From contig DAIENX010000091.1 in assembly GCA_027340875.1 (NCBI GenBank), forward strand, positions 1 through 59,291: 59,291 nt of DNA, read 5' to 3'. The translations under genes were made by a program, and so were the position numbers. The stretch comes from Elusimicrobiota bacterium. Lineage in GTDB: Bacteria > Elusimicrobiota > Elusimicrobia > Elusimicrobiales > UBA9959. The notes below the pieces were generated by a model that was not told the origin of the DNA, did not search any database, and saw only the letters and a program-made list of their open reading frames with translations. Below, piece by piece: positions 24,666-51,462 of the stretch (within the stretch, counting starts at the first letter, position 1; each line of letters starts with the position of its first letter).

Positions 24666-25772
24666 TCATCGTCCGGCCGCCGCCGCGGTCCCCGGCCTGT
24701 CCGCCGGATAGCGCTTGTCCTGGTGGCAAGCCGCGAAGGCCGGCGGCGCGGCGAAACGTCCGTCCGCGTGGCAGGCTTCGCAGCCCAGCGAGGCGTGGAC
24801 CTCGCTGAGCTTCAGGCCGGTCCGCGAATGGTCGAAGCCCTTCTGCCAGCCGGGGTGGCAGGAGTCGCAGCCGGAGGCCGGGACCTTGAAGGCCTCCCCG
24901 GCGCCGTGGCAGGCGGCGCAGGCCAGCCGCCGGTGGAAGCGGTTCAGCGGCCAGCCGGAGGACTTGCCGTGCGCGAAGCTGTCTTCGGGCCTGGAGGCGT
25001 GGCACGCAGCGCACTTGGCCGCCGCGTGGCATCCGAAGCAGGCCTTATGCCTGGCCTGCGCCGGGGCCGCCTTCCTGACGGCGCCGCGTTCCGCGGCGTA
25101 AGCCGAGTGGCAGCTTTCGCAGGTCTCCTGGCGGTGACAGTCGACGCATTTAAGGCCGAAGACCCGCGAGTGGTCCGCGTGGAAGAAAGTGACGTAGCGT
25201 CCTTTTTCGGAGGCCGTTTCGTATACCAGCCGGTCCGGGACCCGGACCTTGCCGGGGCCGCTTTTTCCGGTCCCCCGCGGTTCCGCTCGGCCTTTGTCCT
25301 CATGGCAGTCGCCGCAGGCCGCGGCCTTGTCCCACCTCAGGTGGCATTCCATGCAGAGGCGATGGCGCGCGCCGCGCAGGTCCGGCTTGCCGAGGTCCTC
25401 GCGCGCCCGCGACTTGGAGTGGCATTGATCGCACTTCATCGCGGTGCCGGGCCTGCCGTAATGGTGGCAGTCGCGGCAGCCGCCGCCCATGGCGGCCATC
25501 TCGGCGTGAGCCTTGTGCGGGAACGTCACGGGCCCGTACGGGCCTCCTTTCCCGCCGAAGCGGATCTCGGCGGGGCTCTTGCCGGCCGGGTAGCTGGAGG
25601 CGCCGGCCGAACGCGGGCAGCCGCGCAGGGAAGGGTCCAGCCTGGTAGGGGTGTCGGAAACGTGGCAGAAGGCGCAGGGCGCGTCGGCGGGGTTCATCCC
25701 GTGCGGCGGCTGTTCGCCGGAGCGGGCGCCGGCGGTCAGGAGGAGGGATGTCAGAAGAAGCAGGACCTTCAT
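24666..25772 (-). CDS. Periplasmic multiheme cytochrome c (c3/HmcA-like)
   Basis: Signal peptide; 12 CxxCH motifs plus a degenerate 13th (FAACH); FxHxxH distal-ligand motifs. Confidence 0.9.
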   Translation of the reverse strand: MKVLLLLTSLLLTAGARSGEQPPHGMNPADAPCAFCHVSDTPTRLDPSLRGCPRSAGASSYPAGKSPAEIRFGGKGGPYGPVTFPHKAHAEMAAMGGGCRDCHHYGRPGTAMKCDQCHSKSRAREDLGKPDLRGARHRLCMECHLRWDKAAACGDCHEDKGRAEPRGTGKSGPGKVRVPDRLVYETASEKGRYVTFFHADHSRVFGLKCVDCHRQETCESCHSAYAAERGAVRKAAPAQARHKACFGCHAAAKCAACHASRPEDSFAHGKSSGWPLNRFHRRLACAACHGAGEAFKVPASGCDSCHPGWQKGFDHSRTGLKLSEVHASLGCEACHADGRFAAPPAFAACHQDKRYPADRPGTAAAAGR

Positions 25773-34319: not shown

Positions 34320-34514
34320 TCACCTCTTGGCAGTGCGGACGAAATTCTCCGCGGAACGATCGTACGTGCGCTCCGCTTCGGGGGAGAAAACGCACCCTGG
34401 CAGCTCGCCGGCCGCGCGGTGGTACGCCACGCAGTCGCAGCAGACGCCCTTGCGCGGGCAGGGCTCGTAGGTGCAGGTGCAGCGCTCCAGGTTGGTCTCT
34501 TTCTTGCAGTTCAT
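34320..34514 (-). CDS. Small Cys-rich protein (DUF6485-like)
   Basis: CTCTYEPCPRKG.CC.CV.YH...ELPGC.F..EAE.TYDRS pattern; GGAGG RBS. Confidence 0.75.
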   Translation of the reverse strand: MNCKKETNLERCTCTYEPCPRKGVCCDCVAYHRAAGELPGCVFSPEAERTYDRSAENFVRTAKR

Positions 34515-34691
34515 GGTCCCTCCGCCCGCCGGCGCTTTTATATTAAAGGATATCTTATCAAAAGCCTGGGGCGCAATTCAGGGGCGCGGCCCGGAAAAAA
34601 TCGCGGGGGGGGGGCTGGCGGAAACCGGAAAAAGCGTCTATACTATACACGTGGACGCGGCGACGGTTTTTTCAGGCAGCTGGCGGAAATT

Positions 34692-36320
34692 ATGGAAAGG
34701 AACTCTTCCGGTCCTCTGCGCTGGGTAATGCTCGGCCTGTTCATCCTCCTGATGGGCGGCTTCCTTTCCGCCGTCCATCTAAGCAGCCTCTCGCGCCAGC
34801 AGGGGATGATGAACGGCGGCTTCGGCTATCGCGGCACCGCGCCGGAAGCCTCGTCCGGAGCGCAGGCCACCGCCGGCGGCGTGGCGTCATCCTCCTCTTC
34901 TCCGGAACGCTCCAGGTCCTTCTCCGAAAAAGTATCGAACCTTGCCGACAGCCTGCTCTCCTGGCTCGGCGGCAAGCCGGGGCCCGGCGGCTCCGCCGCT
35001 GTCGCCCAGCGCCCGCCGGACGATGAGGGCGGCTCCGCTTCCGGAGAACGCGATCCTTTCGAGGAGTTCTACAGCAAATATTACGGCCATTCCTCGGCCG
35101 CGTCCTCGCCTCCCAGCGGCGGCTCATCCGCTTTCGGCGGCTTCTCCTCTGTTTCGGGGGCTTCCGCCTCCGCTCCTGCCGCGGCCTCCGCTCAGCATGC
35201 GTCCGCCGGCCCCGTCGCCGCGGCGGCTCCTGCACCGCAGGCGCAGCCGGGTAAGCCGCTTTTCGGAGGGCCGCTCGGTCGTTCCGGCGGCCGGCCTTCT
35301 CCGCTCCAGGCCTCTCTTCCTTCCGGCGGTCTTCCCAGGCCGCCGGCTTCGGTCTCGGGTTCCGGCGGCCTGCCTGGTCTTCCGTCCGAACAGCGCGACG
35401 GCCGCGGTTCCAGCGGCGGGTCCGTTTCGGGGATGCGCGGCAGCGTGGCCGCCGGGGACCTGAACGACGCTTCTTCCGCGCTGCGCGGCGGCGCGCAGAG
35501 CGAATATTCGGGCAAAATGTCGCAGGGCGCGGCCGCCGTGGCTTCCGGTTCCGGCGGTTCCGGCGGCGGCGGTTCCTCGGCTCCGGCGGCTGCCTCCGTG
35601 GGCGGCGGCTCTTCCGGAGACGGCTCCTCCTCCGGAACGCCTACTCCGTCCGCGGCTTCCGGCGGCGACAAGAAGCCCGGGGACGACAAGAAGTCCGGGG
35701 ACCAGAAGTCCTCTCCGGCCGGGGATGATTTCGGCGGATATAACGTCTATTCCACCGGGGCAGGGCCCGAGCAGAACTTCATGAAGTCCGTGGCCGTGGA
35801 GCGGCGCAACGGCGACGAGGCGAAATACCTCGCGGAGGCGGACTATAAAGGCATGCCCGAGAGGTCCCTGCTGAAGTCCGGCGGCATGCCGGCGGAGTAC
35901 GACGACAAGGACCAGAAGGCTTCCGACCAGCCGGCAGCCGACCGCGCAGGCGACATGAAGGACCTCTCTTTCGAGAAGAAGCGCGTTCCGCGCCCTCCCG
36001 ACCCCGAGAACTTCTCCGAGCTGACCGGCGAGCGAAAAGCCCAGTTGAAGCAGAGGATACACCGCTTCATCAGGCGCTTCGAGAACAAGTACGGGCCGAT
36101 GTCGGATATCTTCTTCACGCAGTGCCTGAACGATAAGGAGCTTTGCGAGAAGCATTCCCTGAAGGAAGGCTATCTCACCGAGGCCACGTCCACCGACGCC
36201 AAGCTGGTCCTGGGGCTCAAGTACTCCAGGAAGCGCTGGCGCCCCTACACCGTTTCCGTCACGCTGCCCGGCACGATGCTGGCGCAGGAGGAAGACGGCG
36301 ACGCTCCGCAGTCCCGATAG
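34692..36320 (+). CDS. Membrane-anchored Gly/Ser/Ala-rich hypothetical protein
   Basis: N-terminal TM (WVMLGLFILLMGGFL), long low-complexity linker, charged C-terminal domain. Confidence 0.75.
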   Translation: MERNSSGPLRWVMLGLFILLMGGFLSAVHLSSLSRQQGMMNGGFGYRGTAPEASSGAQATAGGVASSSSSPERSRSFSEKVSNLADSLLSWLGGKPGPGGSAAVAQRPPDDEGGSASGERDPFEEFYSKYYGHSSAASSPPSGGSSAFGGFSSVSGASASAPAAASAQHASAGPVAAAAPAPQAQPGKPLFGGPLGRSGGRPSPLQASLPSGGLPRPPASVSGSGGLPGLPSEQRDGRGSSGGSVSGMRGSVAAGDLNDASSALRGGAQSEYSGKMSQGAAAVASGSGGSGGGGSSAPAAASVGGGSSGDGSSSGTPTPSAASGGDKKPGDDKKSGDQKSSPAGDDFGGYNVYSTGAGPEQNFMKSVAVERRNGDEAKYLAEADYKGMPERSLLKSGGMPAEYDDKDQKASDQPAADRAGDMKDLSFEKKRVPRPPDPENFSELTGERKAQLKQRIHRFIRRFENKYGPMSDIFFTQCLNDKELCEKHSLKEGYLTEATSTDAKLVLGLKYSRKRWRPYTVSVTLPGTMLAQEEDGDAPQSR

Positions 36321-39297: not shown

Positions 39298-39388
39298 CTA
39301 TTTGTAAAAGTACCTGATTTTTCAGTTTCCCCCGCGGGGGGAAGGGTGAAAAGCGGGCATGCTTTTTTGTCAATGTCCGGGGGAGTCT

Positions 39389-40609
39389 ATGACGTACAAC
39401 TCTAACAGCAGGAAAAAGACCCTACTGATATCCATGCTGGCCTTCCTGCTGGTCGGCGGGTCGATATTCCTTTTCTTCGTGGTGCAGGGCGCCGATGAAC
39501 TGACCGGCAAGAACAAGAACAAGAGCTTCTCGTACGGCGACGCCGCCAGGGAGGGCGTCTCCTCCTTCTTCAAGTCGGTGGGGATATTGCCGGAAGAGGA
39601 GAAGAAGCTTTCCGACTCCGCGGTCAGCCGGCTGGATACGCGCGGTCTGCCGCTCAGCGATCTGGGCCTCGGCGGCGCAAAAACGGATATTTCCGACTGG
39701 ATGGCCAAGGACGGTTCCAGGACCTCGGCCTCGGCTTCCGCTTCGCGTCCGTCCGCCCCCGCCAATATCGCGAAAATGGCCCAGAAGCCGCTGTCCGGCG
39801 TCGGCGGCTCCGGCGGCGCCGGTTCCAAGTCCTCCGCGGGGCTGTCGCGCTTCGGCGAAGGTTCCGGGTCCGGAGAAGCCTCCGTGTCCGCTTCCGCGGG
39901 CGCAGGCAAGGCCGGTACTACGGACAAGGGCACCATGGCATCTCTCAAGAACGCCCGGGCGCTGCTGAGCCAGGGTCTGCAGTCCGGCTCGGCCATGACT
40001 GCCAAGGACAAATGGAACCAGAGCTTCGGCGCCGGCGGGGCGAAGACCGCCAATGGCGGGCAGCTGGCCTACAACAAGTCAGGTATGGTAAGCCTGGACA
40101 AGATAAAGAGCGGCGAGATCGAGAGCCTGAAGATGGACAAGGCCAACACCTTCGGCGCTCCCGACGTGCCCAAGATGGAGAAGGCCGCCGGCGCCAACGA
40201 GATAGACCAGGATACGAAGAAGAAAGAGGACATGAAGGCCGAGATGAACAAGCAGATAATGGAGGGCGCCATCAAATCCATGGGCGACGCCATGGAAAAA
40301 TCGATGAAGGATAGGCCTGGCGATCCTGCGGCCGATAGGGCCGATTCGTCCAGGCCTCCCGACGCCGTCATGAACGCCTCGGAGAATGTCACCTGCGAAA
40401 AGGGCTGTACCACCGGCTCGGGGGCGAAATACACGGATGCTGCCAGGGTCTTCACCCAGAACGGGGACGGCAACTGGGAATGCGACATCAACGGCACCCA
40501 GGTGGATCCCGGACCGCCGGAGACCACGATCTCTTATACTGATACCATCACTTACAAGCCAGACGGCACGGTGATGGACATTACGTCGATCGAGAATCCG
40601 GTGAAGTGA
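39389..40609 (+). CDS. Membrane-anchored Gly/Ser-rich array protein 1
   Basis: Basic N-terminus plus TM; low-complexity linker; small Cys-containing C-terminal domain; GGGAG RBS. Confidence 0.8.
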   Translation: MTYNSNSRKKTLLISMLAFLLVGGSIFLFFVVQGADELTGKNKNKSFSYGDAAREGVSSFFKSVGILPEEEKKLSDSAVSRLDTRGLPLSDLGLGGAKTDISDWMAKDGSRTSASASASRPSAPANIAKMAQKPLSGVGGSGGAGSKSSAGLSRFGEGSGSGEASVSASAGAGKAGTTDKGTMASLKNARALLSQGLQSGSAMTAKDKWNQSFGAGGAKTANGGQLAYNKSGMVSLDKIKSGEIESLKMDKANTFGAPDVPKMEKAAGANEIDQDTKKKEDMKAEMNKQIMEGAIKSMGDAMEKSMKDRPGDPAADRADSSRPPDAVMNASENVTCEKGCTTGSGAKYTDAARVFTQNGDGNWECDINGTQVDPGPPETTISYTDTITYKPDGTVMDITSIENPVK

Positions 40610-40632
40610 TAGAACGGGCCTGGGGGCGGCCC

Positions 40633-40661
40633 TTGACAAGTCAAATTCCGTCTGCTATAAC
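40633..40661 (+). promoter_or_regulatory. Putative sigma70 promoter
   Basis: TTGACA-N17-TATAAC with TG extension. Confidence 0.7.
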
Positions 40662-40760
40662 ATCATTGCGTCAACTTTGACCTGAACGCCCGAGGGGGCT
40701 GTGTCAGGAAAAGTTTAAAGTTATTTTTGCGGTCTCAGGCGGCAATAAAAGGGCGGGGTT

Positions 40761-41696
40761 ATGATAAACTTCCAGGCCAAGCAGAACAAGACCAAGCAGT
40801 ACGCCATAGGCGCTTCTGTGGCCGTGGTGATGATAGCCATGTGGATCTCGCTGCCGCTGATGAGCAACTCCTCGCTGGATTCTTCTGTTACTGCCGGAAA
40901 CCCCTTCAAGTCCAAGGTGGCCGACATCGGCCTGCTGGGCAGCGATATCTCTTCCGAGGCCGGCGCCCCCGGTTCCCCGCTTAGCGGCGAGATGATATAC
41001 AACCCCGCCACCTCCGGGGAGAACATAGCCTCTTCCCTTTTCCAGTCCGGTCCCGGCGGCGATGAGCCCACCGACGGCTCCGCGGCTTCTTCGGCTTCCG
41101 GCGTTTCCGCCTCGGCGGGGGTTTCCGCCCCGGCCCCCGGCGGCTCGGCTTCCGCCGGCGCCCCCGGCCCGGCCGGCAAGCTGCGGGCCGCCGCCTCCAT
41201 AACGGCGGGCAACTCCAATTCCATGACGGCGGGCGGCCTGCACAGCAAGTTCTTCGGCTCCGGCAACAATAAGGCGGAGTTCGCGCCCGTGGCCCCAGCC
41301 GACATGAAGAAGCCGCCTGTGGTCGACAAGAAGAATTCGCTCGCTTCCGTCCTGAACGACAGCTCCAAGAAGAGCGAGCTGGCCGCCAAGATGCCCTCCA
41401 TGGACGAGGCCAGGGGCGGCGCCAGCGCGGCTTTCGGTTCTGGCGGTACCGGAGCCAAGAGCATGGACCTGAACGGCGCCGCCGAGCAGGCGGCCGTTAT
41501 GTCCGGCCTGAAGATGGGGGAGGCGGCCCAGGACCTCAAGAGGAACGATCCCAACCTCAGCAAGAGCAAGGTGACACCTCCTACCCCTAAGGACGTCACC
41601 GATAAAGACGAGGAAATGAAGCAGCAGATGAAGATGATGATAATACAGATGGTCCTTAAAATGGTCCTCGGCGCTGTTTTCGGGGCAGTGGCGTAA
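40761..41696 (+). CDS. Membrane-anchored Gly/Ser-rich array protein 2
   Basis: N-terminal TM, Ser/Ala/Gly linker, LKRNDPNL..KDV and a Met-rich hydrophobic C-terminal helix. Confidence 0.82.
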   Translation: MINFQAKQNKTKQYAIGASVAVVMIAMWISLPLMSNSSLDSSVTAGNPFKSKVADIGLLGSDISSEAGAPGSPLSGEMIYNPATSGENIASSLFQSGPGGDEPTDGSAASSASGVSASAGVSAPAPGGSASAGAPGPAGKLRAAASITAGNSNSMTAGGLHSKFFGSGNNKAEFAPVAPADMKKPPVVDKKNSLASVLNDSSKKSELAAKMPSMDEARGGASAAFGSGGTGAKSMDLNGAAEQAAVMSGLKMGEAAQDLKRNDPNLSKSKVTPPTPKDVTDKDEEMKQQMKMMIIQMVLKMVLGAVFGAVA

Positions 41697-41721
41697 GTAG
41701 ATACTGGATTCTGGAGGAGTT

Positions 41722-43206
41722 ATGAACGACGATAACAAGAAGAAAGAGAAAAAGGGCGGGTTCCTCTCGTCTCTTTCCAACCTCTTCGGCGGCGGCGGCT
41801 CATCGGCGATGGGCGGCGCTTCCTCCGGCCTGGGCTCTGCCGGCGGACTCGGCGGGCTTTTCGCCACCAAGGCCGGAATAGTAGGCATGGTGCTGGGCGG
41901 AGCGACGTTGGCCGCCGGTGTCGGCGTTGTGTACAACTTCATCGGCCCCTCCTCCAAGCCAGTGTACAACCCCGACCTTTTCCAGAACAGCTACTACGAG
42001 GAAGAGGCCTCCAAGGCCGGCGAGCAGCGGGCCATGTCCCGCGACGCCTCGGCCGCGGCCTCGTCCACCCTGGACATGTTCCGCGAGCAGGCCAAGAAGG
42101 ACGGGCTTTCGCTGGGTAGCGAGGGCGGCGGCTCGTCCGGGGGCTCTTCGGACGGCTCCGCTCCGCAGGACGCCTCCGCTGACGCTTCGGCCGCGGCGCC
42201 TGATGCCGCGGGCGCTGCGGGCGGCGCCGACGGTGGCGTCGGTGCTGCCGGAGCTGGCGGCCCTAAGCTGCAGAAGCATGCCGGCTTCGGCGGCGGTTCC
42301 GGCGGCGGCTCCGGAACCTCTATACCGAGGATGCAGACCGGCGGCGGACTCAGCGGCGGCATAGGCGCCAAGTTCCAGCCCGTCTACAGGCCTCCGGTGC
42401 AGGCCAACGGCGGCAATCTCTCCGGTATGACCGCTTCCGCGGCCAGGCTGAAGAACGCTCCCAAGTACTCGGTCCCCAACGTCAACAGGAAGGGCGCGTA
42501 CGGCCAGGCCAAGTTCGCCAATAAGATGGGTTCAAAGGCCGCCTTCTCGGCCGACGCGGCGGGCGCCAGGACCAGCGCCGAGACCGCCTTCTCCGGCGAG
42601 ACCAGCGGCAGCGGCGACGTAGGCACCCCAGGCACCGGTGCGGGCCTCGGCGGAGCCGGCGTTACGGACGGGGCCGCGCTCAAGGGGAACGACCCCAGCC
42701 TTAACTCCAACGAGTCCACTCCTCCCAAGGTTCCGGAACATAAGGACGTGGACCCCTGGCAGGAATATGAAGACATGGCCATGGACAGCATGATGTGGGC
42801 TGCCGGTCTTATCCTCATCACCAAGCTGCTCGGGAAATTGGCTAAAACGGTCCCGTTCGTCTACTATCTGGCCGTTGCTACCGCTTTAGCGGCCATCTTC
42901 TACGCCTTGAAGGTAGTCTATGCCGGCTACAAGATGATGACGGAGTTCGGCCAGAAGATGATGGGCGGAATATATATGGCTGTCGGTCTGATGCTTGTTT
43001 ACCAGGCCTGGGAGGCCCTGTGCGGCCTGGAGCAGGGGGCGAGCGATGCCGACACGAAGAGCCTGAACGGAGAGAAGTACAATGCTGACAATCCGGCCAA
43101 GGCCGGCACTACCGGGAAAGTCGATGGCACGACATATACTGCGGACGGGAAGGGTGGCTGGACCACCAAGCCCATGGGCGACTATAGCATTGGGAAACTG
43201 TGGTAA
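41722..43206 (+). CDS. Membrane-anchored Gly/Ser-rich array protein 3
   Basis: KKKEKKGG, TM, STLDMFRE, KGAYGQAK, LKGNDPSL and KDVDPW, then about 3 hydrophobic helices; GGAGG RBS. Confidence 0.85.
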   Translation: MNDDNKKKEKKGGFLSSLSNLFGGGGSSAMGGASSGLGSAGGLGGLFATKAGIVGMVLGGATLAAGVGVVYNFIGPSSKPVYNPDLFQNSYYEEEASKAGEQRAMSRDASAAASSTLDMFREQAKKDGLSLGSEGGGSSGGSSDGSAPQDASADASAAAPDAAGAAGGADGGVGAAGAGGPKLQKHAGFGGGSGGGSGTSIPRMQTGGGLSGGIGAKFQPVYRPPVQANGGNLSGMTASAARLKNAPKYSVPNVNRKGAYGQAKFANKMGSKAAFSADAAGARTSAETAFSGETSGSGDVGTPGTGAGLGGAGVTDGAALKGNDPSLNSNESTPPKVPEHKDVDPWQEYEDMAMDSMMWAAGLILITKLLGKLAKTVPFVYYLAVATALAAIFYALKVVYAGYKMMTEFGQKMMGGIYMAVGLMLVYQAWEALCGLEQGASDADTKSLNGEKYNADNPAKAGTTGKVDGTTYTADGKGGWTTKPMGDYSIGKLW

Positions 43207-43235
43207 GGATATAAGAGGGGCTTTCGGGAGGCGTT

Positions 43236-44744
43236 ATGAGCGAGAATCTGCCTGAAATAGGTTTCAAGGAAAAGAAAGAGAAGAAGCGCGGCATTGGCGG
43301 CTGGCTCCGTCAGAGGCTGGGCTTCGGCTCCCGCGGCGGCGCGATGGGCGAGGCGGGGATCAATCCGTCGGCGATGAACGCCGCCAAGTTCGGCCGCGCC
43401 GCCTTCGGCGCCGGCAAGCTCGGGGCTTCTTCCGCCGGCGGCTTCGCCGGTCTGCTGGCCGGCAAGGCAGGCATGCTGATCACCGCGGCCCTGGTGGCCG
43501 TGGCCGGCGGCATGTACGTGGCCCGCAACTCTCCCACCGCTCCCAGTACCGGCTCCTCCGCCTTCAGCTCCGGCCAGTCCAAGGACAACTATGTCCCCGC
43601 TATACTGAGGAACCAGGCCGCCAACCAGGGCTCCTCGCTGGACATGTTCAAGGAGACCAACAAGGGCGCGGTCTCAATGGAAGAGGCCCCGGCCAAGCCT
43701 GCGGGGCCCCCCAAGGACGCCGCTCCCAAGGACGCCTCCGGGGAGGAACCCCAGACCGCCGAGCCGGCTCCCCCCGGCGGGGATAACATGGCCCAGGACA
43801 TGATGGCCAAGCTGCAGGGCGGCAACATGGCCTCGCTGACCAGCCAGCTGGGCGGCGGCTCCAACAACATGTCCAACTTCGGCGGCTTCTCGAACAAGTA
43901 CGGCCAGGGCTCTATGGGCCCCAAGACCGGCTTTACTTCCGGCATCGGCGCCGGCTTCTCCTCCATGCCCAAGTTCGACCAGCGCAAGAGCAAGATGCTG
44001 GCCATGAAGGGCGGCGCCCGCCCCGTGTTCGGCGGCGCCAAGGCCGGCAGCAAAGGCACCATAGGCAAGGGAGCTTTTAATCAGGCCAAGGGAATGCGGG
44101 CGATACAGAAGTCCTATACCGGTAACAGCATAGACGGCGCCCGCTCCACGCAGGACAAGGCCTGGGAGGGGACTACCGGGGAAGGCGACGCTTCGGGCGG
44201 CGCCGGCTTGAGCGACGGCGGCGCCGGCATAGTCACCTCGCCCTCGCTGGACAACGCGGACGGCATGCACGGCGGCGGCGCTCTCGGCAACGGCACGGAC
44301 CCGGGGACCCCTACCACTCCGGACGTCCCCAAGGATGTCAGCCCGTGGGCCGATCTGCTGGCACAGTCCATGCAGTCCCTGCTGATGGCGGCCCTGCTGG
44401 CCTATATAGGCGGCAAGCTCTGTAAGATCGGCCTCGACGGCATGAAGAAGTCGAGCTTCTGGCCCTTCATCGGCTACCTGATCGTCTACATCATCGGCGC
44501 CGTCATGTGCCTCTATGCGCTCAAACTGAGCGTAGACGCTCTTAATAACGGCATGTCGCTGATAAACGATTATGGCCAGAAGCTGCTGGGCACGGCGTAC
44601 GTGATAGGCGGCGTCATGGGCATTATCAATTCGATAATGGGCTTGATGGGCCAGACGCAGGGCGTGGCCGGCTTCACGATGGGCTGGATGAGCGCCGTCA
44701 TGGCCATGATAGGCGCGGTGGGAGGCATGATGGGCGGCAAATAA
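43236..44744 (+). CDS. Membrane-anchored Gly/Ser-rich array protein 4
   Basis: KEKKEKKRG, TM, SSLDMFKE, KGAFNQAK and KDVSPW, then about 4 hydrophobic helices; GGAGG RBS. Confidence 0.85.
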   Translation: MSENLPEIGFKEKKEKKRGIGGWLRQRLGFGSRGGAMGEAGINPSAMNAAKFGRAAFGAGKLGASSAGGFAGLLAGKAGMLITAALVAVAGGMYVARNSPTAPSTGSSAFSSGQSKDNYVPAILRNQAANQGSSLDMFKETNKGAVSMEEAPAKPAGPPKDAAPKDASGEEPQTAEPAPPGGDNMAQDMMAKLQGGNMASLTSQLGGGSNNMSNFGGFSNKYGQGSMGPKTGFTSGIGAGFSSMPKFDQRKSKMLAMKGGARPVFGGAKAGSKGTIGKGAFNQAKGMRAIQKSYTGNSIDGARSTQDKAWEGTTGEGDASGGAGLSDGGAGIVTSPSLDNADGMHGGGALGNGTDPGTPTTPDVPKDVSPWADLLAQSMQSLLMAALLAYIGGKLCKIGLDGMKKSSFWPFIGYLIVYIIGAVMCLYALKLSVDALNNGMSLINDYGQKLLGTAYVIGGVMGIINSIMGLMGQTQGVAGFTMGWMSAVMAMIGAVGGMMGGK

Positions 44745-44863
44745 GCTCCGGGACGTACGGAGGCCGTCGCGGACCGGCGGCCCCGGATATGCCGCTGAAG
44801 TTTTTGGTAAGGGTGTCTAGGATATTCTATTTCCATGGGCCGGTCAGGCCATATGGAGGTTAT

Positions 44864-46390
44864 ATGGGTAGCAAGTTCATATAGAAACACAAACGCAAGT
44901 CGGTACTGGCGGCGCTGCTGTTCATTTTCCAGGGCAAGGCCAAGTACATCACCATACTGCTGACCGTCACCGTGTTTTCCATCCCCTTCGTGATCTCCGG
45001 AGAGACCTTCGACCGGATGGTGACCTTCGCTCCCGTGGCCTCCGCGCTCCGGGCCCTGGGCATGGACAGCGTGGTCTCGTCCCTGAACCCCAAATACTCC
45101 AACGACCTTCTGAAGGCCGCGCTGAACAAGGCGGCCGAGGACAGCAAGCAGGATTCTTTCTGGCAGAAATTCCTCAAAAGCATGAACGCCTCCCTGCCTC
45201 CGGGCGGAGGCCCCTCCTCCATAGCCATGGTGAAGGGCGGGGGGGACGACCTGTTCGGCCCCCCTGAGGTGAAGGACGCCAAGGGTGAGAAGGCCAGGGG
45301 CCCGGGCGAGGTCAAGGGCGCCGTTAACGAGGAGGAGCGCGAGCGCGGCGATACCGGCGACGGCGTGGACCTGCAGGGGATGCTGGCCGGCAGTGCCGAC
45401 GGCATGTCTGGCCTTTATGATTCCATGGGCCAGAACCTGGCGGCCAGCTTCTCCGGCGGCTCCGGCATGAGCGCCGGCCCCTACATGAACCGCACTATGT
45501 TCACCAGCCGCAACGGCGCGGACGCCGGCGGCGGCGCGGCCATCTACGACAAGGCCGTTAAGCACTCCTCCGTCGGAGAGGTCCCCGTCCCGAACGCCGT
45601 GGGCAAGCCCCGCTCCAAGAAGATGGGGCGCGTCTCCGGCTTCGCCTGGAAGAACGTCGGCTATAACCGCAACCAGAGCGCGGCGCTCACCAAGATCGGC
45701 TCCAAGCGGCCCATGTTCCAGCTGGCCGAAACCTTCACTATGACCGGCGCCGCGGCGAAATCGCATGATTCCGCCTACGAGTACCAGAAATCTTACGTCG
45801 GCAGCACCTACGACGGTAACGATACCGGCGCCGACGCCATGGAAACGGACGCCGACTCGCCTACCGTGCCTCCGGACGCCGGGTTCACCGACGGCCTGAT
45901 GCTGGGGGCCGGCGACCTGCAGAAGCAGGCGGATCAGTGCTCGGCAGCGGAGGGCACCAACGGCGCCAAGATGTCAGAGGACGGCGACAAGATGTCCAAG
46001 ATCAAGGACAGCATGGGCAGCCCGCCTTCGTGCTGCAGCGGCGGCGTGGGCGCCTGGAACGCCAAGGTGGACCAGCTCGTCAGCCTCTGCCACGACTATA
46101 ACGCCAACGACGCCATCCTGGCTGGCAAATGCCAGACCAGCACCAAGCCGCAGAACTGCGGGTCTTACGCCGGCATGCACATAAATCCGTGCTCATGGTG
46201 GTCATGTTTCCTGGCCATAATCCTGATGATCATCCTGGGCGGCATCTTCGGCGTGTTCGGCTCGATAGCCGTGGCCGCCGTGATCGGCGGCTCTTCAATG
46301 GGACTTTTCGGAGATAAGATGAACAGTTTCGTGGAGAACATGATCGGTTATATCGCTTCTGGAGGCAAGAGCGATCAGGGCGGCCAGTGA
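44864..46390 (+). pseudogene. Array protein 5 with an in-frame TAG at codon 7
   Basis: GGAGG RBS then ATG 44864: MGSKFI-TAG-KHKRKSVLAALLFIF, in frame with ORF 44972-46390; Cys-rich region and hydrophobic C-terminal hairpin. May be an intact gene with a sequence error. Confidence 0.72.
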
Positions 46391-46465
46391 GGCTAGGCCC
46401 GGCGCCGGAGGCGCGGCAGTTCTCCGGTGGGGAACACAGATCTTAAGCCCGCGGTAAGAGCCAGT

Positions 46466-46546
46466 CCGGAATAAGGTTCCGGTGTCGCAACTGAGCTTGG
46501 CTGCGAGCGACCGTCGAGGAGTATGGTGCGTGGAACTTTATTCCGG
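46466..46546. repeat. Intergenic inverted-repeat element
   Basis: CCGGAATAAGGTTCC and GGAACTTTATTCCGG (14/15 inverted match) flank about 50 bp; followed by hairpin CCGCC-CGAAA-GGCGG. Confidence 0.55.
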
Positions 46547-46746
46547 GACCGCCCGAAAGGCGGACGGCTTTGCCGGGGGTTTTTTTGGGCCCCGCCGGAG
46601 GGGCCAAAGGGCCCAGCAGTATAGGGGACCATTGACACTTGGCCCGGGACGGAGTTTAAGGTAGAGTATAGTCGGAGAAATATGCCGGGGCCCGAGCCCC
46701 ATATATCAGTAGGCGGAATTACAAACCAGGTATTCGGAGGCAGTAT

Positions 46747-49700
46747 ATGAGCTTCTACAATAAGGACGAAAAAAAGGCTGGCGGTCCGGCGTTGCCGGGG
46801 TCGCCGTTCAAGAAAGCTTCCGCCTTCGGCAAGACGCCGATGTTCTCCCGCGCCGCGGGCGGCTTGATCGACAGGCTCAAGAACCTCTCCAAGAGGGACA
46901 TGGCCTTCGTCGGCATTGGCCTCAGCGTGCTCGTGATGGCGCCCGTCGCCGAATACATGATGTCGCAGCCGGTGCAGGACCCGATGCTGACCGCCAGCGG
47001 CTTCGGCAGCCGCGAGGGTTCCGCCAACGGCCTCTACGAGCCCGGCATCAACGGGCTGAGCACCGGCTCGCCCGACGGCGCCGGCGAGGTCATAACCCCT
47101 CTCAGCTCGCGCGACCCGGCCTCCCTGATACTCGGCGCCGAGCCGGCCCAGGCGCCGGTCCCGTCGGCCGCCCCGGCCGCCCCGCCCAGCGGCAGCTGGC
47201 GCGACGCTATGGCCGATTCCGGCCGCGCCGCCTTCAGCGCCGCCGCCAAGTCCGCCGGCGCGCCTACCCCGATCAACAGGATGCAGGGCATGCTGCGCAC
47301 CGTCTCCTCGTTCACTGACGGCGGCGGCAGCAGCAGCCGCACCACCGGCACGCTCGGCGGCGGCAACATAATCGAAAAGGCCAAGTCCGCCTCCTCCAAG
47401 GCCGCCGCCCGCTCCATGGTGGGCCCGGTAGCTATGGCCGGCTACAAGGGCGTGGCCTCCAATACCCCGAACAGCGCCTCCAAGGGCGCGTTCGAGAAGC
47501 TCCGCTCCGCTGCCGACAAGTCCGCGAGCAACTTCTCCGGCGGCTCCGCGATGAACTCGCTGGACAAGGCCGCGGCCGACGCCGTGGAGATAGGCAAGGG
47601 CGCGGGCGGGATAGGCGCCCTGGGCAACGGCGATGAAATAAAGGGCGGCAAGGATTACGACAACAAGTACACCCACCAGCGCTCCGGCGAGTCCCTCGCC
47701 GAGATGGCGCAGAAGCAGCGCCTGAACAAGGCGCTCGAGTGGGAGTTCTTCAAGAAGTACGAGATCCCCAAGCAGATCATCAACGCCGTGGTGGGCGCCA
47801 TAGCCAAGGAACTGGGCGACGCCGTGGGCGGCGCGGTGCACGGCGTGCTGAACCCCAGCGGCCCGGCGGCCCCGAAGCTCTACTGCTGGAAGAGGGAGGC
47901 GACTGGCTGGACCAATACGCATCTGCTGAAGTCCGATTGTTTCGACAAGGACGGGAAACTTTCCGCAGCCTGCTCGGACTGCCACTTCCTGACCGCTGAC
48001 TGCAATCCCGGCACGAACGGGGAGTGCTCCGGCGGCGGGACTCCTCCCCCTGCCGGCGGCGGTCAGCAGGGCGGCGCTCATGGCGACCCCTACCATTCCC
48101 CGGCCCCGACCTGGCCCACTGAGGATATCTCCAAATTCGACGGCTATCTGAAACAGTTCAGGCTGGATATCAAGGCTGCGGCCGACAAGCACAACCGCCC
48201 CGGAGAGTTCACCGAGGCCGGTTACGCCCTCAGTAAGGAATTCAATGACATGACCGGGCGGAGTTCCAAGGACAATTCCTTCGCAGTGGTCCTGAATAAC
48301 CTGCAGAAAAAAGCCGGTGAGTTCGATAAAGCGCAGGGGCTCTACGCAGGGGAAGTGGACTCGGCTTCCTCCTACCGGGACCAGGTGAAGCAGAGCAATT
48401 CGGCCTTGAGGGAAACGATACAGAAAAAGATCGACAGCCCCGAAGAGCTGGCAAAGATAGCCGCCCGCATGAATACGGGCAATGGCAAAGACGCCACTAT
48501 CCCTCAAGGTAAGGCTGTCGAGACCAAGGGCGCCGACCTCAGCGGTCCTACGCAGGCCCTGACGAAGCTCCGCGACGAGCTGGATGATAACGCCAAGGCT
48601 ATGGATATATTCAAGCCTAAGCTGGAGTTCCTGGACCGTTCCAAGGCGTTCTTCGCCGACCAGGCCAAGCAGATGTCGGCCGCTGTTGGAGAACTGCAGA
48701 CCGGTAACGGCAAGTTCGAATCGGAACTCTCCGGAGGCCCGGTCCCCGGCGCCGAAGGCGGTCCGCTATCGATATTCAAAACCTATAATGACGAGTTCAG
48801 CAAGCCGGACTCGAAATTCAAGCCCACCGAAGAGGACCTGAAGAAGCTGGCCAACGCCTTCAACACCCTCACCGGCTTCCCGGTGGAGGTGGACGGCGCC
48901 GCTCCCGCGGATCAGAAAACAGAGGAAACCATGACGGGGCGGCTGCTCGTGATGCGCGGAGCCGATTCCGAAGCCTATTACAAGAAGTCCGCTATCGACG
49001 ACACCAAGTTCAGGGACGAGAAGAGCGACCTGTCGGAGGCGGCCGTCTGGCCTCCGGTCAGCGTCAAGAAGAAGTACTTCCTGAACAAGATGGAAGGCGA
49101 ACCGACGCTGGCGCCGCAGCTGACGCAAGAGCGCAAGGTAACGCCGGTGCTGAACATCCGCATCGCCGATGAACTGACGGACGAAGTGGAGGCGATGAAG
49201 AACCAGATCAAGGAGCTAAAGGAGCAGGACATCCATGGCGCGGAGAACAAGGTCGCGGATGTAAAGAAGAGGCTGGATGCCCTCACCGGCGAGGGGACTC
49301 AGCCTGCCAACAATCCGCCGACCAACAATCCGCCGACTAACAACCCGCCGACGAATAATCCGCCGGTCGACAACGGCAACGGGAATAACGCCGCGGGCGC
49401 CGGCAATACCGCCATAACCAAGGCCGACACTGTGCTGCAGTCCGCCGATCCGATGATCAGCGACAACCAGCGCATCTATGATGGTCTTATCGCGAATAAG
49501 CACAACTGCACTTCCCAGGTCTGCAAGACCCAACTGGGTATTGCGGAAACTGAAATGGCGAACATGAAGAAGCTCCGGAGCGAGATAGCGACGCTGAGAG
49601 ATGATGCCGCCAAACCCGGCGCCGATATCGCCGCCATAGAGAGGCAGATAGGCGACAAACAGCGCGCGCTGGCCGCGTCAGACGAGAGGTTCGACGCCGC

Positions 49701-50547
49701 TGCCGCTATCGTGGCAAAACGCGAAGGCATTCCCAGCTCTACCGGCAACAACCATAACGGGAATAACGGGAATAATGGGAATAACGGCAACGGGCATAAC
49801 AACCCCCCGCCGCAGAACAACCATGCCAAGCCCACGCCTCCGCCCAACGTGATAAACACCGTGGTCCTCTATAACGGCCCGGCCACCATAAAGGCCTGGG
49901 ACAAGAAGGGCCGGGCCATCATGTACTGGGCCTGCCCCAACGGCAAGATCACGAAGAAGCCGTTCTATCAGAGGGCCGGTCAGTACGCCCTCAGCATGGT
50001 AGGCGGCCCGCTGGTCTCCACGTTCTACGGCGGCTACGTGCTCTTCGGCGACGACCCGCGCGTCGACAACAACTGCTCCACCGGCTGGAAGCAGCAGCAG
50101 GCCACCATCAAGGTGGAGGACTTCTCCCTGGCACCGCTCGGCAAGGTCCCCAGCCCCGCGCAGAGGAAACTCGGCAATATCCCCGTCTATCAGGAACAGG
50201 TTTGGATAGGGGATACCCAGAAGCTGCCGCAGACCGTCGGCACCGAGGCGCGCTGGGCCAGGGAGAACTGGAGCGTGCTGAAGCGCGGCCATTACGAGAT
50301 GGACATCGACGTGGTCTGCGAATGGAACGAGACCCGCAAGCGCTGGGAGTTCAAAGAGGTCGGCATGACCCACGGCACGGCTGAATCCTCCGACGCCTAC
50401 GGCGTGGAAGCCGGCGTGAGCGCCGGCATCAAGGTGGTGGACGTGGACGTCAAGGCCAGCTACCACCACGAGCAGCGGCAGTTCAACTACGGCGTGAAGA
50501 CGGACTACACCAGGCCGGCCGGCTTCGCCGGAATGGAATGTAAGTAA
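46747..50547 (+). CDS. Large (1266 aa) membrane-anchored array protein 6
   Basis: KDEKKAGG, TM, Gly/Ser linker, KGAFEKLRSA, Cys-rich module, helical regions, NNPPT and NNG repeats, beta-rich C-terminus; GGAGG RBS. Confidence 0.88.
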   Translation: MSFYNKDEKKAGGPALPGSPFKKASAFGKTPMFSRAAGGLIDRLKNLSKRDMAFVGIGLSVLVMAPVAEYMMSQPVQDPMLTASGFGSREGSANGLYEPGINGLSTGSPDGAGEVITPLSSRDPASLILGAEPAQAPVPSAAPAAPPSGSWRDAMADSGRAAFSAAAKSAGAPTPINRMQGMLRTVSSFTDGGGSSSRTTGTLGGGNIIEKAKSASSKAAARSMVGPVAMAGYKGVASNTPNSASKGAFEKLRSAADKSASNFSGGSAMNSLDKAAADAVEIGKGAGGIGALGNGDEIKGGKDYDNKYTHQRSGESLAEMAQKQRLNKALEWEFFKKYEIPKQIINAVVGAIAKELGDAVGGAVHGVLNPSGPAAPKLYCWKREATGWTNTHLLKSDCFDKDGKLSAACSDCHFLTADCNPGTNGECSGGGTPPPAGGGQQGGAHGDPYHSPAPTWPTEDISKFDGYLKQFRLDIKAAADKHNRPGEFTEAGYALSKEFNDMTGRSSKDNSFAVVLNNLQKKAGEFDKAQGLYAGEVDSASSYRDQVKQSNSALRETIQKKIDSPEELAKIAARMNTGNGKDATIPQGKAVETKGADLSGPTQALTKLRDELDDNAKAMDIFKPKLEFLDRSKAFFADQAKQMSAAVGELQTGNGKFESELSGGPVPGAEGGPLSIFKTYNDEFSKPDSKFKPTEEDLKKLANAFNTLTGFPVEVDGAAPADQKTEETMTGRLLVMRGADSEAYYKKSAIDDTKFRDEKSDLSEAAVWPPVSVKKKYFLNKMEGEPTLAPQLTQERKVTPVLNIRIADELTDEVEAMKNQIKELKEQDIHGAENKVADVKKRLDALTGEGTQPANNPPTNNPPTNNPPTNNPPVDNGNGNNAAGAGNTAITKADTVLQSADPMISDNQRIYDGLIANKHNCTSQVCKTQLGIAETEMANMKKLRSEIATLRDDAAKPGADIAAIERQIGDKQRALAASDERFDAAAAIVAKREGIPSSTGNNHNGNNGNNGNNGNGHNNPPPQNNHAKPTPPPNVINTVVLYNGPATIKAWDKKGRAIMYWACPNGKITKKPFYQRAGQYALSMVGGPLVSTFYGGYVLFGDDPRVDNNCSTGWKQQQATIKVEDFSLAPLGKVPSPAQRKLGNIPVYQEQVWIGDTQKLPQTVGTEARWARENWSVLKRGHYEMDIDVVCEWNETRKRWEFKEVGMTHGTAESSDAYGVEAGVSAGIKVVDVDVKASYHHEQRQFNYGVKTDYTRPAGFAGMECK
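49309..49368 (+). repeat. Coding tandem repeat, 4 x 15 bp (NNPPT)
   Basis: AAYAAYCCGCCGACN units; last unit ends in GTC. Confidence 0.9.
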
Positions 50548-50563
50548 GAGGGTATCCCGCCCC

Positions 50564-50603
50564 AAAAAGAACGCCCCCGGTAACCCCGGGGGCGTTTTTA
50601 TTT
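50564..50603 (+). terminator. Intrinsic terminator closing the array
   Basis: AACGCCCCCGG / CCGGGGGCGTT stem with T-tract. Confidence 0.85.
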
Positions 50604-50740
50604 GATGCGGATCATGGGTCTTAAGGCCTATTAAATATATGGACCTATGGCCCTATTTGAAAAGCCGCAGTTCTGGTAGTATTAAAGATACTGTAGCCGC
50701 AAATTTGATGATTTGCGGCATGTTTTAAGGGGGGGAAACA

Positions 50741-51313
50741 ATGAATAAACGAACGACACTGTCCGCGGGGCTGATAGTGGTATTCCTGTTCTCGTACGCT
50801 AAAGCCGCTGATACGAACGCATCCGCTAAGCCGGCTGAACAGGCCGGAACTTCCAAGTCTGAAGCCACGGAAATCCCTTCCCGCGTGGACCTGATGAAAG
50901 GAACGGATACATCCCCTGAAGATGTGCAGAGATGTAAGGACAGGTGTGACAGGCACTATTCTTCTTGTACGGACAGTGTCCGTGATAAGTTCCTTAAAGC
51001 AGAGGATGATTGTAGGTCTGATTACGACAGTTCTTATGATAAATGTGAAGATACCCGTCAGGATGATATGGGTACTTGCCGCGACAAATTAGATAAGTGC
51101 GAGAGTAACTGCGACAAAGACGATGTGAAATGCCGCAACCAGTGCACCGATGATGACGCCGACTGTAAAAGTGATGCATATCGTACCTTTGATTCCTGCA
51201 AGAGTGACGCTCAAAGCGACAAGAAGAGCTGCTTGGATGATGCCAAGGATTCCAAGGATGATGGGGATTCTGACTGCAAACGGGATAAGGATGATTGTGA
51301 GGCCGATTGCTGA
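50741..51313 (+). CDS. Secreted Asp/Cys-rich protein with 16 Cys in mirror-symmetric spacing
   Basis: Signal peptide (..SYAKA); visibly lower GC than its flanks. Confidence 0.82.
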   Translation: MNKRTTLSAGLIVVFLFSYAKAADTNASAKPAEQAGTSKSEATEIPSRVDLMKGTDTSPEDVQRCKDRCDRHYSSCTDSVRDKFLKAEDDCRSDYDSSYDKCEDTRQDDMGTCRDKLDKCESNCDKDDVKCRNQCTDDDADCKSDAYRTFDSCKSDAQSDKKSCLDDAKDSKDDGDSDCKRDKDDCEADC

Positions 51314-51462
51314 CAGATCGATCTAGCGCGCCGTTTCTGCAGTAGAAGGCCGCTAATCCGCCCCCCGTGTTCCTTGCGCGGGGGGCGCTTCATTGCCGCG
51401 GCAAAAATCGTATAATATAGGCTGGATCCGGGCGCCGATTGCCCGGGGAAAAGGGGAAAATA

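Follow-up and report, generated by a model that had tools for sequence, protein, structure and literature searches.

Within the window analysed here, a 59,291-nucleotide stretch of genomic DNA from a bacterium of the phylum Elusimicrobiota, a forward-strand gene encodes a 190-residue protein whose 16 cysteines are spaced in an exact mirror pattern. The mirrored arrangement is real and non-random. The fold that it points to, a long antiparallel helical hairpin closed by eight nested disulfides, is very probable, given a structure prediction, an idealised geometric model and two homologues. A fuller reading, in which the protein is exported by the Sec pathway as a protease-resistant, eight-disulfide rod whose variable acidic tip would bind a target outside the cytoplasm, leans on modelling, and we regard it as finely balanced between right and wrong. 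The features of the locus, in window coordinates, are:

50563..50604, strand not assigned: terminator-like hairpin ending the upstream gene array, with A and T tails (-28.4 kcal/mol, z -5.95)
50600..51398, strand not assigned: putative inserted cassette, 799 bp, GC 0.49, lying between the array terminator and the next gene's promoter region
50696..50719, strand not assigned: inverted repeat, possible operator or 5' hairpin (z -4.03), a single copy in the genome
50741..51313, forward strand: gene for the 16-cysteine protein, 190 residues, an open reading frame kept in homologues P0001 and P0002
50741..50806, forward strand: likely Sec signal peptide, residues 1-22, with basic start, hydrophobic core and AxA site, assigned by eye
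50807..50914, forward strand: linker, residues 23-58, predicted to be disordered (pLDDT <50 for residues 1-50)
50915..51106, forward strand: helix 1, residues 59-122, with C65, C69, C76, C91, C102, C113 and C120 (AlphaFold2)
51107..51124, forward strand: turn, residues 123-128, with C124 (AlphaFold2), three residues shorter in the homologues
51125..51310, forward strand: helix 2, residues 129-190, with C131, C135, C142, C153, C164, C179, C186 and C190 (AlphaFold2)
51359..51387, forward strand: downstream G+C hairpin, terminator-like, without a long T run (z -3.46)

The cysteines occupy positions 65, 69, 76, 91, 102, 113, 120 and 124 and then 131, 135, 142, 153, 164, 179, 186 and 190. The gaps between them (X3,6,14,10,10,6,3,[6],3,6,10,10,14,6,3) form the exact palindrome that a preliminary description of this DNA had claimed, corresponding to distances of 4,7,15,11,11,7,4,[7],4,7,11,11,15,7,4, and the positions of each of the eight mirror pairs sum to 255. 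When the same gaps are reshuffled, 630 of 9,459,450 orderings (6.7e-5) are palindromic; 20,000 random placements of 16 cysteines in 126 positions never gave more than six mirror pairs; and a mirror match is still a 1 in 495 event when the cysteines are restricted to 12 grid sites per arm. Among the genome's 857 open reading frames with at least six cysteines, this is the longest palindrome of cysteine gaps, the next longest (11 gaps) belonging to what looks, by its CXXCH repeats, like a multihaem cytochrome. Several large multihaem c-type cytochromes, recognised by such repeats, are encoded at G000:C13, C86 and positions 24666-25772 of the window. The proposal that all cysteines lie on one helix face depends on the helical pitch: on an 11/3 hendecad wheel (98.2° per residue) they fall at 0 or 33°, but at the canonical 100° they spread over 260°, a drift which means that the proposal requires hendecad, nearly untwisted packing. 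Residues 65-190 contain 40 D/E and 25 K/R, a net charge of -15 that bears out the strongly acidic character noted earlier. By eye, the leader contains neither a twin-arginine motif nor a lipobox cysteine, and the linker, which has no other copy of its motif in the genome, includes a short conserved helix at residues 48-53 in the AlphaFold2 model.

The antiparallel hairpin anticipated from the spacing, with the first cysteine stapled to the sixteenth and so on inwards to the eighth and ninth, is supported by AlphaFold2, by an ideal-geometry model and by the homologues. From a two-sequence alignment, AlphaFold2 predicts helices at 59-122 and 129-189 with pLDDT of 92-98 per block, and the five models of the 190-residue protein scored 76.9-79.3. 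Folded alone, as a single-sequence prediction in which one of five models was confident, P0001 gave helices at 60-123 and 126-191 in that best model, the other four scoring below 49. In ideal helices, the Cβ atoms of cysteines on the same helix lie 6.3 Å (i+4), 10.7 Å (i+7) and 16.6 Å (i+11) apart, distances which exclude sequential disulfides. With antiparallel packing at 8.5 Å in the register that sums to 255, all eight mirror pairs approach to 3.8-4.1 Å, whereas six alternative registers bring at most six pairs within 5 Å; C124 and C131 are joinable at 6.5 Å in register 255, as against 7.7-20 Å in registers with at least four close pairs. Since this model presupposes the hendecad pitch, it speaks for feasibility only, as does the rod length of 89 Å from C65 to C124 that it yields.

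In the predicted register the cysteine rungs are 65-190, 69-186, 76-179, 91-164, 102-153, 113-142, 120-135 and 124-131, and nowhere does a cysteine face a residue of another kind. Four further rungs, V80-G175, A87-A168, S98-A157 and D109-A146, hold mostly small residues, the helix 2 partner being Ala or Gly in all three proteins. Helix 1 carries an aromatic stripe (Y73, F84 and Y95) that is opposed on one flank by K183, K172 and K161, helix 2 bears an Asp at every eleventh residue (D145, 156, 167, 178 and 189), invariant in all three sequences, and the surface beyond the seam is nearly all D, K, S and R. With almost no other hydrophobic core, the disulfides would stand in for one. Two elaborations of this picture failed: an Arg-Asp salt-bridge ladder (R70-D189, R92-D167 and R114-D145) is unsupported, the partners being 14 Å apart in the ideal model, and, cysteines aside, neither arm is a reversed copy of its partner (p 0.62). 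The 11-residue self-similarity within the arms is only weak, and a homodimer prediction returned an uninformative score of 0.00. Together, the mirror spacing, the AlphaFold2 hairpin, the ideal model, the small residues at the non-cysteine rungs and the conserved arms of the homologues make nested disulfides likely. For the last 130 residues, the prediction is of a straight hairpin of two helices, some 9 nm in length, which the eight bonds would lock.

Homologues of the protein are few. P0001 and P0002, JGI proteins from one 90% cluster, align over the full length at 55-56% identity and are nearly identical to each other. One of 29 candidates from the homologue search was accepted, a profile search over 1.84 billion representatives returned P0001 together with P0003, an unrelated repeat protein, and peptide-pattern scans confirmed none of 194 stretches of metagenome contigs and none of 46 of genome contigs. 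A search for longer forms, itself a weak one, gave 0 from 51 candidates. Both arms are kept in P0001 and P0002, shortening is confined to the turn, and the number of rungs is equal in all three sequences. The homologues retain the symmetry in part: seven pairs shift jointly to a sum of 252, as a three-residue deletion in the turn entails, but the innermost pair, C124/C129, sums to 253 and so lies one off the mirror register, the tip pattern now being CX3C-X4-CX2C. At two non-cysteine positions bulk is swapped across the hairpin, L117/D139 becoming Q/W or Q/Y and R106/F150 becoming Y/V or Y/L. Identity extends to the signal peptide (15 of 22 residues in both homologues) and the end of the linker (eight of 14 at 45-58). 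Outside the cysteines, identity to P0001 falls from 44 of 72 residues in the base half to 10 of 35 in the half with the tip, where the length differs as well; this contrast comes from one independent comparison with boundaries set post hoc, and relaxed constraint may explain it.

Searches for known families and folds returned nothing specific. Neither Pfam nor NCBIfam has a family matching the protein at E<=1, profile A2 found no PDB sequence at E<=10, Foldseek gave generic hairpins and no match at E<=0.001, the best VIA Z of 11.4 (7n6g_1T, rmsd 2.4 over 111) falls below the level that is meaningful for long helices, and the ESM Atlas offered unnamed structural rows and no feature match. Among eukaryotic proteins, the small Tim and CHCH families of mitochondria, marked by twin CX3C and twin CX9C motifs respectively, are antiparallel helix pairs with nested disulfides, two in number, and are imported by MIA40. 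On the usual family definition, the 16-cysteine protein, with its cysteine count and no Pfam match, is not one of them. α-Hairpinins are helix-loop-helix peptides with nested disulfides and a 4C motif, CX3CX4-20CX3C (PMC11591084), and antimicrobial or protease-inhibitor activity is a further mark of that family. Like them, the present protein is apparently secreted, and its tip, C120-X3-C124-X6-C131-X3-C135, has the commonest form of that motif (n = 6), which P0001 and P0002 lack because their second motif is CX2C. Unlike these short plant peptides with two or three pairs, it is an acidic bacterial ladder of 126 residues with eight pairs on an 11-residue grid, within a mature protein of 168 residues from an Elusimicrobiota genome, and its 12 extra cysteines, eight of them single at distances of 7-15, fall under the rule of the same source that excludes proteins with at least three cysteines lying beyond the 4C/6C motifs (PMC11591084). 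A further likeness concerns the mosquito 30-kDa salivary family, secreted proteins in which an acidic low-complexity N-terminal part precedes two loop-joined, disulfide-linked helices, the collagen-binding C-terminal domain of aegyptin and AAPP (PMC5307786). In Foldseek, AAPP (PDB 4OKV, 4okv_E) is the best small-hairpin row, at E 2.3 with a TM by target of 0.80 (62 columns, rmsd 1.9), a score that any hairpin can reach; with two disulfides over ~65 residues, a non-significant E and neither a PDB sequence at E<=10 nor a Pfam match to suggest homology, it serves as an analogy only. The 16-cysteine protein is outside all of the families tested; it is likely that a design already known, the helical hairpin stapled by disulfides, occurs here in a long, bacterial form. 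A search of the literature, mostly at the level of titles and abstracts and short of most subscription papers, listed no description of a bacterial protein of such design.

Shorter secreted proteins in other phyla appear to use the same cysteine grid. A scan of genome contigs with the inner cysteine pattern gave at least 121 loci with 60 open frames, mostly antisense or of low complexity. Six among the matches listed (L115, L151, L140, L147, L097 and L077) look by eye like plausible secreted proteins with cysteine distances that alternate between 4 and 7 in mirror pairing; they come from Binatia, Deltaproteobacteria, Alphaproteobacteria (two), Bryobacteraceae and Polyangiaceae, and none matches a Pfam family over the cut-off. 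Related sequences are P0027-P0032 for L115 and L151, in an Alphaproteobacteria-like group, P0033-34 for L140 and P0035 for L147, and a profile including four of the six found ten more. Such hairpins share with the 16-cysteine protein a signal-like N-terminus (for L147, via P0035) and mirror pairing about a CX3C-X6-CX3C turn, but they are shorter, have five or six consecutive rungs with every rung filled, and are often basic (net +6 in L115 and L151). They were absent from homologue searches with the 16-cysteine protein, match a profile only as members of it, and lie out of register at the turn in a MAFFT alignment (A3) of that protein with the short analogues. In P0028, from one of these short and apparently unrelated families, both cysteines of one rung have been lost together (gaps 4,7,4,11,7,11,4,7,4), and, judging from this sequence, the 11- and 15-residue gaps of the 16-cysteine protein can arise by paired rung loss of the same kind. 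Cysteine-codon scans matched 17 of 400 other genomes of the phylum, the matches listed being low-complexity runs read as DNA, and at least 119 loci on metagenome contigs, whose 49 open frames yielded one more plausible protein, L204; none of these contig loci has a tblastn match to the 16-cysteine protein.

Several further cysteine-rich proteins came to light. L077:1219-2232, from Binatia, has 27 cysteines mostly on a 4/7/11 grid with two equally good mirror registers; it may be a bundle of several hairpins, after which comes another domain. At L002:783-1389 (G000:C2), a small open reading frame with a mirror cysteine hairpin (4,11,14,11,4) and one additional cysteine overlaps the end of a gene of the peptidyl-arginine-deiminase family (PF04371) and is followed by an 83-residue frame; neither frame has a Pfam match, and the two give the impression of an orphan toxin tip with its immunity gene. 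A different architecture is seen at L003:5405-7237 (G000:C69), which encodes a secreted-looking protein of 610 residues, its N-terminal half coiled-coil, in which a cysteine-rich repeat with 4/11 spacing occurs twice.

The gene itself differs in composition from its surroundings, as had been suggested: GC is 0.487 and GC3 0.51, against GC3 of 0.80-0.93 in the nine neighbouring genes measured, and the interval 50600-51398 ranks in the lowest-GC 1.3% of 6,846 genome windows of 800 bp. Upstream lies an array at 39359-50547 (and 34419-36320) of six Gly/Ser/Ala-rich genes, each encoding an N-terminal hydrophobic segment; no Pfam family scored over the cut-off in a scan of these genes that excluded the one at 34419. 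The C-terminal part of the last array protein (1266 residues) differs between relatives in the manner of polymorphic surface proteins. By position, the 16-cysteine gene does directly follow this array, as described earlier, but the strong hairpin at 50563-50604, whose stability was equalled in 0 of 200 shuffles, lies between them. On the other side of that hairpin, a ribosome-binding G run (50729-50735) sits just 3' of the inverted repeat. The hairpins flanking the cassette (50572-50598 and 51359-51388) have a common arm motif, CGCCCCC...GGGGGCG, which occurs five times in the genome, and recombination at them could bring in or remove the cassette.

Downstream of the cassette are a gene labelled by eye as outer-membrane-type, dnaX and recR. 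The phylum assignment agrees with the Elusimicrobiota label borne by a member of the RecR cluster and by proteins of related genomes. Of 24 genus genomes sampled, 22 have the outer-membrane-type gene, all 22 without the 16-cysteine gene. Among the 22 relatives' loci anchored on the outer-membrane-type gene, 12 have a long open reading frame that ends 121-264 bases upstream and so leaves no room for an insert (three of these 12 matched the 1266-residue protein within 1.5 kb, so that the orthology of the 12 is partly assumed), eight have other genes in the slot and two end too soon. What we take to be deoxyhypusine-synthase-like genes occupy the slot in four relatives (L014, L015, L019 and L021), and that of L016 holds two small, presumably toxin-antitoxin-like, frames. 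Unrelated secreted proteins containing cysteine are encoded there at L017:464-1336 and L024:387-1106. The 16-cysteine gene was found in none of 79 family genomes, where the sole match (one of 79, E 0.084) covered the signal peptide alone, in none of 300 phylum genomes and in none of 42 genus genomes. In sequencing runs X1, X2 and X4, possibly the source samples, one contig each covers the DNA of the gene with zero differing letters; no RNA is listed among the runs that carry this DNA. In X5 and X6, which belong to a different study, 50592-51398 is left uncovered and no contig bridges it. There, in the first 41 letters of a close relative's contig, the last 30 start with the 17 bases of 50583-50599 and continue at 51399, placing the 3' arm of the terminator beside 51399; no single contig spans the site, and we infer an empty site. 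The low GC, the variable slot and the failure to find the gene in 79 family genomes all support the earlier suggestion of acquisition. Given the terminator between the genes, the variable slot, its absence from the genomes searched and relatives of the C-terminal domain that lack it, the 16-cysteine gene is a rare accessory single-gene cassette and not a fixed partner of the array.

Disulfides are supported by the Sec-type leader, the exact pairing, the isolation of the central rungs and an excess of even cysteine counts in exported proteins: 127 of the 257 cysteine-bearing members (0.494 against 0.412 +/- 0.03) of a crude exported set of 340, defined by a rough signal-peptide heuristic, have an even number, and the genome's 1,043 other proteins show no such excess. 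An alternative is that the thiols stay reduced and bind Cu(I) or Zn, in linear Cys-metal-Cys rungs, in four-cysteine sites at the ends or in a bundle of four helices made by two hairpins. Its appeal lies in the copper storage (Csp) proteins, which hold 16-19 reduced cysteines within four-helix bundles; the count here is within the range of the Csp3s, the cysteines are likewise on helices and the proteins are of similar size (PMC10155185). The CX3C pairs at both ends of the ideal model also bring four cysteines within 4-8 Å, and no match to the canonical oxidases PF13462, DsbB (PF02600) or VKOR (PF07884) was found in the 92%-complete genome. All that the genome showed besides were three DsbD-type domains and one exported DSBA-like protein of 476 residues at L186:382-1812 (G000:C67); its DSBA/GILT-like domain is weak, scoring just under or at the cut-off, and has one active-site cysteine, and the protein is a candidate for non-canonical disulfide handling. 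Metal binding by the thiols is nevertheless improbable, since two long helices, not four, are modelled in both predictions, with mirror pairs along them; rungs 91-164 and 102-153 lie at least 15 Å from any other cysteine in the ideal model; the ladder has a single His; and the outward faces are nearly all D, K, S and R. Moreover, Csp1-3 are exported by the Tat route or cytosolic, whereas the leader is, by eye, of Sec type without a twin arginine in all three sequences, and PF03860 (DUF326) repeats are absent from both the protein, which has no Pfam match at E<=1, and the genome, in a search that did match Bacillus subtilis.

As to what a disulfide-locked rod would do, the suggestion that the gene is a partner or immunity factor of the array draws on its position directly downstream of the gene for the 1266-residue protein, on the variable C-terminus of that protein and on its own low GC. 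Polymorphic-toxin immunity genes are co-transcribed and co-occur with their cognate C-terminal domain; here the strong terminator-like hairpin separates the genes, the related domain occurs in five of 42 genus genomes and the 16-cysteine gene in none, and the next gene is something else in four of the five domain loci, the four where it is visible. Runs X5 and X6, moreover, include a contig that differs by 54 letters over 767 bases of the DNA for the C-terminal domain, in addition to the contig end that suggests an empty site. The suggestion is thus not supported, and an immunity or chaperone role for this domain is highly improbable. A role as molecular ruler or spacer of set length within the envelope, such as next to the outer-membrane-type protein of the neighbouring gene, would suit a rigid 9-nm rod (by the ideal model) with the same rung number in all three sequences, but the protein has neither an anchor nor a second domain, the weak search for fused longer forms gave none, and the neighbour persists in relatives that lack the gene, all of which leaves this role quite improbable. 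The same rod might instead do an electrostatic job, its Asp stripes (every 11 residues, ~16.5 Å) binding Ca2+, other cations, mineral surfaces or cationic peptides in the periplasm or matrix. The net charge of the ladder, the 38 D/E against 19-21 K/R of the homologues, the invariant Asp column of helix 2 and the mine drainage metagenome label of four runs holding this DNA are consistent with such binding; against it, the 25 Lys and Arg residues cancel much of the charge, the helices offer no EF-hand or loop site, the basic L115 and L151 on the same grid mean that acidity is no part of the design, and the habitat label comes from a single study, which may itself be the source. We therefore consider an electrostatic role unlikely.

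In the favoured reading, the protease-resistant, rigid stalk would present its variable tip to a periplasmic or extracellular target. It is suggested by the surface composition, the difference in identity between tip and base and the analogy with aegyptin/AAPP and the α-hairpinins; the tip-binding role in particular, as a binding or decoy surface, is plausible by that analogy, with the chances somewhat against it. More doubtfully, secreted bacterial proteins may include a modular class, so far undescribed, of which this protein is the long extreme, characterised by hendecad hairpins, a disulfide ladder in place of a core, rung changes in mirror pairs, a fast-changing tip, swapped cassettes and oxidation without canonical DsbA/DsbB. 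If that class exists, its members would represent a natural binding scaffold, resembling the stalk of an antibody, that is moved between genomes as single-gene cassettes. With a gene that is rare and accessory and has no known target, the finding carries limited biological weight for the present. If the fold is confirmed, it would supply a natural rule set, useful for protein design, by which 126 residues build a very stable 9-nm rod: two positions in each 11-residue repeat are given to cysteine or small residues, which pair up between the antiparallel arms of the hairpin. It also raises the question of how eight correct disulfides would be made, searches of the genome having turned up neither DsbB nor VKOR. 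Confirmation would, in addition, carry the disulfide-stapled hairpin, a design familiar from short peptides of plants, insects and mitochondria, over to long proteins of bacteria.
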